Below, piece by piece: positions 20,165 to 20,873 of a stretch of DNA of 24,000 nucleotides. A program made the position numbers and the translations under genes. Source of the stretch: Peptococcaceae bacterium (GTDB lineage: Bacteria; Bacillota; Peptococcia; Peptococcales; Peptococcaceae); assembly GCA_900756555.1 (NCBI GenBank), contig CAAEKP010000020.1, positions 25,037 to 49,036 of the forward strand, written 5' to 3'. The stretch's first letter is position 1. Each line of letters opens with the position of its first letter. Under the pieces are notes generated by a model. It searched no databases. It had not been told where the DNA came from and worked only from the letters and a program-made list of their open reading frames with translations.

Positions 20165-20704
20165 TTATTGTTCCATTTGTTTAGCCAGAAAAGAGGCGGC
20201 AGTTTCTGCCAGTTTTAATTCTAAATCGGACATTTTTACGCCTGATTCTTTGGTGGCAATGATTACGGTGCCGATAGGATCACCTTCAGCGATAATGGGC
20301 GCCATAATCTGTGAGGTAAATGTTTTTTCAATGCCATTGTCGGTGTTGCCGCGGAACAGAGCATGGATGGCGGTTTCACCAACACTGACTGCTTTGCGTT
20401 CTTCCATCACTTTTTCGGCAGCCAGACCAATAGACTTGCCCAAGAAATCTTTTTTTGATGCACCGGCGATGGCGATAATCTGGTCGCGGTCAGTGATAAT
20501 GGCGATATGTCCGGTAGCTTCAAATAAAGAATCAGCATATTCCTGAGCAAATTCCCCCAATTCACCGATAGGTGAATATTTTTTGAGGATGACCTCTCCA
20601 TCGTGGTCTACAAAAATTTCTAATGGGTCGCCTTCACGGATCCGGAGTGTGCGGCGGATTTCTTTGGGAATTACCACCCGACCTAAATCATCCCATTGTG
20701 TCAA
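20165..20704 (-). CDS. spoVT: Stage V sporulation protein T (AbrB-type N-domain plus GAF-like C-domain); the native 5' end is missing or replaced
   Basis: ...DDLGRVVIPKEIRRTLRIREGDPLEIFVDHDGEVILKKYSPIGELGEFAQEYADSL...ETAASFLAKQMEQ is collinear with B. subtilis SpoVT from residue 11 onward. The first conserved strand (MKATGIVRRI) is replaced by (L)TQW. The only in-frame start is TTG at 20704 with no SD within 5-12 nt. Confidence 0.85.
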   Translation of the reverse strand: MTQWDDLGRVVIPKEIRRTLRIREGDPLEIFVDHDGEVILKKYSPIGELGEFAQEYADSLFEATGHIAIITDRDQIIAIAGASKKDFLGKSIGLAAEKVMEERKAVSVGETAIHALFRGNTDNGIEKTFTSQIMAPIIAEGDPIGTVIIATKESGVKMSDLELKLAETAASFLAKQMEQ

Positions 20705-20842
20705 GCAGGTGCAAAAAAATTTGAGCCACCTCCGAAAAGCCCTGTAATATCAATGTTTTTAGGCTTCTCGGAGATTTTTAAAAACTCATTTTATCTCCTA
20801 CCCATTGAGTTATTTTAGGACAAAAATCGACCTATTTCCCCA

Positions 20843-20870
20843 AAATGAAACCAGCCCGAAGGCTGGCTCC
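20843..20870 (-). terminator. Intrinsic terminator after the distal recombinase gene
   Basis: On the minus strand, ggagccagcc-uucg-ggcugguuu is followed by cauuuugggg. It starts 4 nt after the stop codon at 20874-20876. Confidence 0.65.
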
Positions 20871-20873
20871 AAG

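Follow-up and report, generated by a model that had tools for sequence, protein, structure and literature searches.

A conjugative element with a serine recombinase triplet very probably occupies the sporulation gene spoVT in a Peptococcaceae bacterium

Streptococcal integrative conjugative elements (ICEs) that carry triplets of serine recombinase genes integrate into and disrupt the genes mutT, hsdM or traG (Ambroset et al. 2016, PMC4701971). A different set of serine-recombinase elements splits sporulation genes, namely skin in sigK, SPbeta in spsM, vfbin in spoVFB, gin in gerE and yin in yabG (PMC4191935, PMC5595907, PMC10747680); among these targets spsM, spoVFB, gerE and yabG have late mother-cell or spore-envelope functions, and their elements are prophage-like (PMC10747680). 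Here we describe a stretch of 24,000 nucleotides (nt) from a Peptococcaceae bacterium (GCA_900756555.1, contig CAAEKP010000020.1, positions 25,037-49,036 of the forward strand; hereafter the window) in which the sporulation gene spoVT is split, and which very probably holds attR, the right-hand junction, of an ICE inserted into spoVT through site-specific recombination by large serine recombinases. The source contig (ENA ERZ772868 NODE_218, here L001) is 59,949 nt long and reaches 14.3 kb into the foreign DNA.

Intervening elements such as skin excise in the mother cell, which is terminally differentiating, and spoVT is a forespore gene in Bacillus subtilis. In Listeria, the A118-like prophage in comK is a phage with demonstrated regulated excision, a behaviour known as active lysogeny. 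From Clostridioides difficile we take as the nearest comparators the Tn1549/CTn4-type conjugative transposons and the serine-recombinase transposons Tn5397 (TndX) and Tn4451 (TnpX).

The split spoVT gene and its empty site

The open reading frame (ORF) at 20165..20704 on the minus strand is, judged by its sequence, a genuine but truncated spoVT. It matches the TIGR02851 profile with 259.2 bits (cutoff 235.9), but the alignment covers profile positions 9-180 only, positions 1-8 being absent, and Pfam recognizes SpoVT_C and an AbrB/MazE-type N domain in the product. The closest homologues (85-95% identity in a search of 5.8 billion proteins) are 185 amino acids (aa) long and have the N-terminus MKATGIVRRIDDLG; the corresponding region of the window reads ...KFFCTCLTQW-DDLG. 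When aligned to the empty site of the same species, the window matches it at every position from GATGATTTAGG (20692) downward and shows no relation to it above that point, so the foreign DNA ends at 20693, the last base of the element. spoVT is cut by the element between codons 10 and 11. This agrees with the original prediction, made from the letters of the window, that spoVT had lost its first ~10 codons at the edge of a serine-recombinase element, since the profile match starts at position 9 and the breakpoint lies at codon 11. The in-frame TGA (20752-20750), the TTG (20704-20702) and the GGAGGTG placed 22 nt before this TTG (20733-20727) were confirmed by direct reading, and the terminator and two large serine recombinase genes that were said to point at the junction are present as well (hairpin z = -3.8; Pfam domains), with a third recombinase gene lying beyond the window. 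The features of the locus are as follows.

20165..20692, minus strand: 3' segment of spoVT, codons 11-185 and stop (TIGR02851; matches the conspecific empty site; in-silico join)
20691..20692, minus strand: GA dinucleotide, the likely crossover core of attR, from attB x attP (comparison of attL and attR junctions)
20693..20720, minus strand: outer half-site of the right end, the P arm of attR, AAATTTTTTTGCACCTGCTTGACACAATGG (100% identity among all carriers of the same recombinase)
20711..20775, minus strand: hairpin (20775-20728) with T-run, a second terminator-like structure (15-bp stem, then AAAUUUUUUU)
20802..20828, minus strand: inner half-site-like repeat GATTTTTGTCCTAAAATAACTCAATGG, an inverted copy of the left end CTATTGAGTTATAATAGGACAAAA
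20838..20871, minus strand: intrinsic terminator of the external recombinase gene (-18.8 kcal/mol hairpin, then UUUCAUUUU; z = -3.8)
20874..22460, minus strand: rec1, external large serine recombinase, 528 aa from the ATG at 22460 (Resolvase 72 bits, Recombinase 90 bits, Zn_ribbon_recom)
22462..24000, minus strand: rec2, middle large serine recombinase, 568 aa (Pfam; full length in L001 6537-8243)
18891..20069, plus strand: class I/II aminotransferase gene of the host flank, convergent with spoVT (Pfam Aminotran_1_2); anchors the locus to the empty-site contigs
20115..20152, minus strand: native terminator of spoVT (-22.1 kcal/mol hairpin with U-run, z = -6.7)

rec1 was read at ten places, and at all ten spoVT continues from codon 11 directly after one and the same 40-nt element end. 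As this junction recurs in every carrier contig read, across independent samples and hosts, it is not a product of chance or an assembly artefact.

The protein predicted for a restored gene (MKATGIVRRI followed by the residues of the window) was looked up by its exact sequence and was found without any change in 34 contigs (P0241, 185 aa). A comparison with relatives lacking the element, as had been proposed for defining the empty site, revealed the same flanking genes around an intact spoVT (L098, L103 and others). The empty-site contigs L097-L104 share the downstream genes of the window, namely the aminotransferase, a 140-aa ORF, DUF2992, DUF1905, fhs and dnaJ, and upstream of spoVT they carry a histidine kinase/response regulator pair, a transglycosylase, spoIIID and mbl. 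The earlier remark that mfd is lacking upstream of the truncated gene is correct; as a clue, however, it fails, because the native neighbour of spoVT in this species is the kinase/regulator pair and not mfd, and its absence is uninformative. Insertion is the minority state in the species, with ~7 truncated against ~140 intact contigs among the cluster members listed.

Two further conspecific contigs were set apart from the empty sites proper. The first (L010, 1-591) shares 99.98% identity with the window from 20599 downward, but codons 1-41 of its spoVT and the region upstream are foreign to the lineage, with an amidohydrolase gene in place of the kinase/regulator pair; it was rejected as an empty site and looks like a recombination breakpoint inside spoVT. 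The second (L109, ~6600-6646) has a spoVT that is intact but for a TAA at codon 13, only 3 nt away from the GA core (GATGATTAACG versus GATGATTTAGG); this could be either a sequencing error or an attachment-site mutation.

The left junction was reached through a look-up of the response regulator from the empty-site flank. In three conspecific contigs (L106, L113 and L114) the native upstream region and Shine-Dalgarno (SD) sequence are followed by ATG AAA GCA ACA GGT ATT GTC CGC AGA ATT GA, which runs directly into CTATTGAGTTATAATAGGACAAAAGG. The promoter, SD and codons 1-10 are fused there to the left end of the element, so that the displaced 5' segment of spoVT was found at the far end where it had been expected. 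At least five further hosts show this fusion of the left end to spoVT codons 1-10, and in each the promoter and codon usage are the host's own. We then joined 1500 nt of the attL flank, including the GA, with the 1500 nt of the window flank that follow its GA in silico; the product is identical to the empty site at 3000 of 3000 positions, with 0 mismatches and no duplication or loss, and it encodes an intact SpoVT of 185 aa. Empty site, attL and join all fit a site-specific integration that splits spoVT near its start, as originally proposed, and by the in-silico join a precise excision would rebuild spoVT without a scar.

In one assembly (GCA_040094465.1, L134 3212-3341), within a phage-like region, the left end of the element was observed at the start of a different AbrB-type gene (MKAAGVIRRI, then the junction). 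It may be that the recombinase also accepts the N-terminal coding sequences of AbrB-family paralogues.

Attachment sites, recombinases and conjugation genes

The junctions on both sides narrow the point of exchange. The attL junctions end in ...ATH-GA followed by CTATTGAG in at least six hosts, while the attR junctions read ...NN, then GA-YGAY, in at least twelve. The bases that flank the GA vary on both sides (GG, AA, CA or GA on the side of the element; ATT, ATC or ATA on that of the host), so the GA is the likely crossover dinucleotide. It is common to attL and attR, as in a conservative exchange at a 2-bp core without duplication or loss of the target. On this basis attP would read ...TTGACACAATGG-GA-CTATTGAGTTATAATAGG... 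and attB ...CGCAGAATT-GA-TGATTTAGG....

At the right end lie two sequences that resemble half-sites. The outer half-site includes the fortuitous TTG 'start' at 20704-20702, and its TTTTG...TTGACAY motif is retained even where the recombinase has no more than 48-71% identity. Diverged family members (L012, L013, L015, L017, L018 and L019) have an equivalent of the inner site ~110 nt inside the end, and this layout of two sites ~110 nt apart is kept where the recombinase is only ~50% identical. The outer right arm agrees with the reverse complement of the left arm at 14 of 26 positions (TTTTG...AC.CAAT.G), and the inner site at 20802-20828 resembles an inverted left end far more closely. The region 20693-20832 folds with -37.6 kcal/mol (z = -3.3). 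No convincing inverted-repeat partner of the right end was found within 10 kb upstream at nine loci; a left end within this distance was rejected, the real one lying much further away.

All three recombinases of the triplet contain PF00239, PF07508 and PF13408 as well as the RLS motif, which in rec1 forms part of the catalytic motif YLRLS. The first 56 codons of rec2, including the catalytic serine, lie beyond the end of the window, and so does rec3, the internal recombinase of 563 aa with a weak DUF4368 domain, which is found in the source contig. Beyond the triplet the source contig continues with DUF6870, a pemK toxin, helix-turn-helix (HTH) genes and a 469-aa winged-HTH (wHTH)/BTAD regulator.

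Read from the right, the element would consist of the recombinase triplet, a regulatory and accessory region (Xre-type HTH genes, the wHTH/BTAD regulator and the pemK toxin behind a pemK RNA motif), a variable cargo and a left arm devoted to conjugation. The left arm encodes DUF5348, RepA_N, ParA, ParB, PcfB, a VirD4-like coupling protein, Maff2, TrbL_2, PrgI, a VirB4-like ATPase, an NlpC/P60 hydrolase and a CD1107-like protein. On the conspecific contig L135, outside the window, the coupling protein belongs to the CD1115 family (557 bits, cutoff 250) and the ATPase to the CD1110 family (1119 bits, cutoff 325), both NCBIfam equivalogs, and we take this conjugation module to be of the Tn1549/CTn4-like type. 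A PF03432 relaxase was found ~22 kb from attR on a contig with an identical recombinase triplet (L125); none was seen in the source contig, which breaks off at 14.3 kb. A recombinase module at one extremity, a coupling protein with a VirB4-type ATPase, a relaxase, and attL and attR with an empty attB are thus all present, as in ICEs; the element is conjugative, not a skin-like remnant or a prophage-like element of the skin/SPbeta type. Some variants carry a ribosomal protection gene of the Tet(M/W/O) family (L125 and L127 11713-13632; 1313 bits, cutoff 1100), and another (L126) carries a type VII secretion cluster (EssC-like, YukD, WXG100).

Compared with the known systems, the closest likeness is to the streptococcal triplet ICEs, which also have internal, middle and external recombinase genes at one extremity, a site inside a protein-coding gene and a mosaic structure with nested elements. 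It differs from them in its target, in its hosts, which are spore-forming gut Clostridia, and in its CD1110/CD1115-type conjugation module, RepA_N and ParAB. With the C. difficile conjugative transposons it shares the CD1110/CD1115 proteins, Maff2, TrbL_2, PrgI, PcfB, the CD1107-like protein and the weak DUF4368 in the internal recombinase; unlike the C. difficile transposons, it has three recombinases instead of one and a fixed attB in spoVT. As with the skin-type elements, a large-serine-recombinase element splits a sporulation gene whose halves rejoin to an intact ORF, here in silico. However, this element is conjugative and strain-variable, and its target is a regulator of the forespore according to work in B. 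subtilis and C. difficile, so that spoVT stands outside the mother-cell targets typical of skin-like elements. The A118-like prophage in comK is similar in that a serine-recombinase element interrupts a developmental regulator gene which excision restores, but the present element is an ICE whose regulated excision would be hypothetical. A full-text literature search returned no report of spoVT as an attachment site; with its incomplete coverage, this counts only as absence of evidence. The most fitting class for the element is that of the serine-recombinase-triplet ICEs, with spoVT as a new target.

This target recurs among the relatives of the recombinase that were examined. The exact 528-aa external recombinase is listed in 326 blocks of the contig collection, and the identical right end occurs in at least twelve hosts in which SpoVT is 44-88% identical to that of the window and the flanking genes all differ. 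An identical element in hosts with such divergent SpoVT proteins implies transfer of the element between hosts. Homologues of the recombinase with 48-71% identity from GTDB representatives adjoin spoVT codon 11 at nine of the nine loci examined; two of these retain only a short spoVT remnant followed by a further insertion. Their hosts include Blautia, Oscillospiraceae, Faeciplasma, Faecivicinus, Acetatifactor, Ruminococcus and others. The targeted DNA encodes the near-invariant motif MKATGIVRRI/DDLGRVVIPKEIRR (slash, junction), and attB is presumably conserved at the DNA level across Clostridia because this motif is encoded there. Being conserved in DNA and in a gene dispensable for vegetative growth, the spoVT site could serve as a safe harbour for a broad range of hosts.

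Further insertions were observed in the same region of spoVT. Two genomes have another insertion after codon 33 (REGDP, then the junction; L013 5874-5942 and L015 5038-5115), both together with the codon-11 element. A Tn916-type element with Int/Xis and MobA lies after codon ~15 in L124 (~11770), with ~14 nt of spoVT left behind the codon-11 end, and a spoVT remnant in L016 ends after codon ~17 (~9655). The 5' end of spoVT looks like a hotspot for multiple elements. A related conjugative element splits a different gene, spoIIID, after ~codon 45 in a conspecific metagenome-assembled genome (GCA_965316775.1; L108 11604-11771 onward). Its junction reads CATAAAGAT/GATGGTGTCATAATAAG, compared with an intact spoIIID in L107; spoVT is intact in the L108 genome, and the backbone of the spoIIID element is 70-77% identical at the nucleotide level to that of the spoVT element.

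The element also hosts other elements. In L121 (~7114) another CTn4-like conjugative element is nested in the internal recombinase gene, and the coupling-protein gene holds a nested serine-recombinase/TnpV element and a group II intron (L136 10483-13407 and L137 10483-13617). The pemK toxin gene is preceded by the Rfam pemK RNA motif (L001 3702-3826, beyond the window and equivalent to ~26,880-27,003 in its coordinates; 69 bits, gathering score 34.8), with no protein antitoxin gene upstream. Directly 5' of this motif lies a 17-mer, ATGAAAGCAACAGGCAT, which matches 16 of 17 bases of the first six codons of the host spoVT (~1e-4 such matches expected by chance). This position, 6.3 kb into the element (L001 3702), was rejected as the left junction: it lacks both an SD and the 12 nt that lead to codon 10, and it lies at the 5' edge of the pemK motif.

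Other features of the host locus

Away from the junction, the DUF2992 gene (17254-17703) has an azaaromatic (yjdF) riboswitch upstream, at 17691-17818 on the minus strand (72 bits; gathering score 45). Within a heat-shock operon, between hrcA (8342-9394) and grpE (10944-11519), lies a 507-aa ORF on the plus strand (9407-10930) with hits to Cpn60_TCP1 (PF00118), a likeness to the archaeal-like chaperonins reported from some Firmicutes. Positions 1-8000 of the window have a lower GC content (0.27-0.38, against ~0.45 elsewhere in the window), and in a sister species (L004) the gene set of this region (LysR, a CitMHS transporter, a phosphodiesterase and an ABC ATPase) directly adjoins spoVT; it is possibly a mobile or rearranged island.

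Effect on spoVT and the possibility of a switch

Integration leaves the promoter, ribosome-binding site and codons 1-10 of spoVT at attL and codons 11-185 at attR. On the attR side the truncated gene has two terminators upstream, and a consensus scan of the element end detected no promoter directed towards it. spoVT would thus be a null allele for as long as the element stays integrated. In C. difficile, a spoVT mutant completes engulfment and yields phase-dark, immature spores and no heat-resistant colony-forming units (PMC3789822). By analogy, carriers of the element probably lack mature heat-resistant spores unless the ICE excises.

Several points weigh against an ICE inserted into spoVT, or limit what can be said of it. 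No contig spans both ends, and by BLAST the left arm (13 kb) and the right arm (22 kb) do not overlap; the element would accordingly exceed ~35 kb, and the two arms might instead belong to a composite of two tandem elements. The element is a mosaic, with a right-hand module of 9.4 kb that has a sharp left boundary and variable neighbours and forms a separate contig in some samples. Integration is ascribed to the triplet as a whole, with no single recombinase singled out. The state of spoVT is described at this one locus, and the loss of sporulation is extrapolated from other species. On the other side, a single metagenome (JGI 3300029248) yielded both an attL and an attR contig of this species. 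In the assembly ERZ15621650, attL lies on NODE_373 at a coverage of 20.0x and the attR-side triplet on NODE_16 at 18.4x, both contigs ending inside the element, and exact left-arm and right-arm proteins are both present in a single Hungatella hathewayi submission. Both ends very likely belong to one element, possibly with nested passengers. The 9.4-kb module by itself was considered as the whole element, since both of its boundaries coincide with the contig ends of L011 and L094, and was rejected: its left neighbours are genes of the element and not spoVT, it has no terminal repeat, and longer contigs run on into the cargo and the relaxase.

Among the alternatives to an ordinary transmissible ICE, the one that survives best, though it appears improbable to us, is a developmentally regulated switch comparable to skin in sigK, SPbeta in spsM or active lysogeny. 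The element would be excised at sporulation, in the forespore or the predivisional cell, persist as a plasmid-like circle and re-integrate at germination. The scarless split of spoVT in silico is consistent with it, as is a sporulation gene as the target, which holds for all known intervening elements (PMC10747680). RepA_N and ParA/ParB could maintain an excised circle, and the related element in spoIIID splits another sporulation regulator. Contigs that hold the right module only stop precisely at the GA core, as would fit a mixture of integrated and excised populations; contig breaks at the element ends are, however, equally explained by several hosts of the element within one sample. No circle junction (attP) was found by a scan with the right end among viral contigs, and a scan with the left end in JGI metagenomes gave attL junctions only. 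Against a switch, the element is fully conjugative, with near-identical copies in many species and an occupancy of ~5% among the conspecific contigs listed, which argues for recent horizontal spread and not domestication. Excision in the forespore would moreover risk its loss from the germ line, and neither a sporulation-type promoter nor a directionality factor was identified for the element.

We consider it highly implausible that the insertion is phenotypically silent, with the TTG at 20704 starting a functional SpoVT that has an alternative N-terminus (MTQW...). The TTG is in frame with a GGAGGTG upstream, gene callers predict a 179-aa product, and in L017 the fused frame reads TRRDDLG, vaguely resembling the native VRRIDDLG. 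However, such a protein would lack the first beta-strand of the AbrB-type swapped-hairpin fold (TIGR02851 positions 1-8), the 22-nt SD spacing is non-functional by usual standards, and the terminators and the result of the promoter scan argue against its transcription. In related elements the same frame is closed by a stop codon directly before codon 11 (TAA in L012 and L013-L015, TGA in L018), so the TTG is not a conserved start and the fused ORF has not been kept by selection.

The last alternative, a lineage-specific SpoVT variant or an assembly chimera without any integration, for which nothing speaks beyond the single window, can be practically dismissed: conspecific strains have the canonical N-terminus at an otherwise identical locus, and the TQW residues, whose lineage-specific occurrence had been named as the finding that would overturn the prediction, are encoded by the element end, which recurs in unrelated hosts (L003, L020, L091 and others) beside spoVT genes only 44-88% identical and abuts codon 11 in every independently assembled carrier contig read.

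With the insertion of an ICE into spoVT, the sporulation genes split by serine-recombinase elements come to include a regulator of the forespore, and the elements that split them a conjugative one. It is usually argued that excision does no harm because the mother cell dies, but this does not hold for spoVT. A recombinase family with a fixed target, across recombinases as little as 48% identical and across many hosts, also offers candidate integration tools for Clostridia. Proteins identical to those of the element were found in Hungatella hathewayi, Enterocloster and Eisenbergiella, so cultured carriers appear to exist and the phenotype is directly testable.

Spores carry many anaerobic gut commensals between hosts, and a common, transmissible element that knocks out spoVT would provide a simple route to the gain and loss of sporulation. 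A wider proposal, that a broad-host-range family of conjugative elements in gut Clostridia uses sporulation regulators as attachment sites (spoVT, and spoIIID for a related lineage) and acts as a frequent, reversible and transmissible sporulation switch, possibly tied to the spread of tetracycline resistance, is offered here tentatively, as we regard it as rather unlikely. In its strongest form the switch would act in the developing spore, with excision set off there and the circle maintained by the RepA_N/ParAB functions that it encodes. If the proposal is true, acquisition of the element would switch spore maturation off and its precise excision would switch it back on, altering the mode by which these bacteria are transmitted from host to host.

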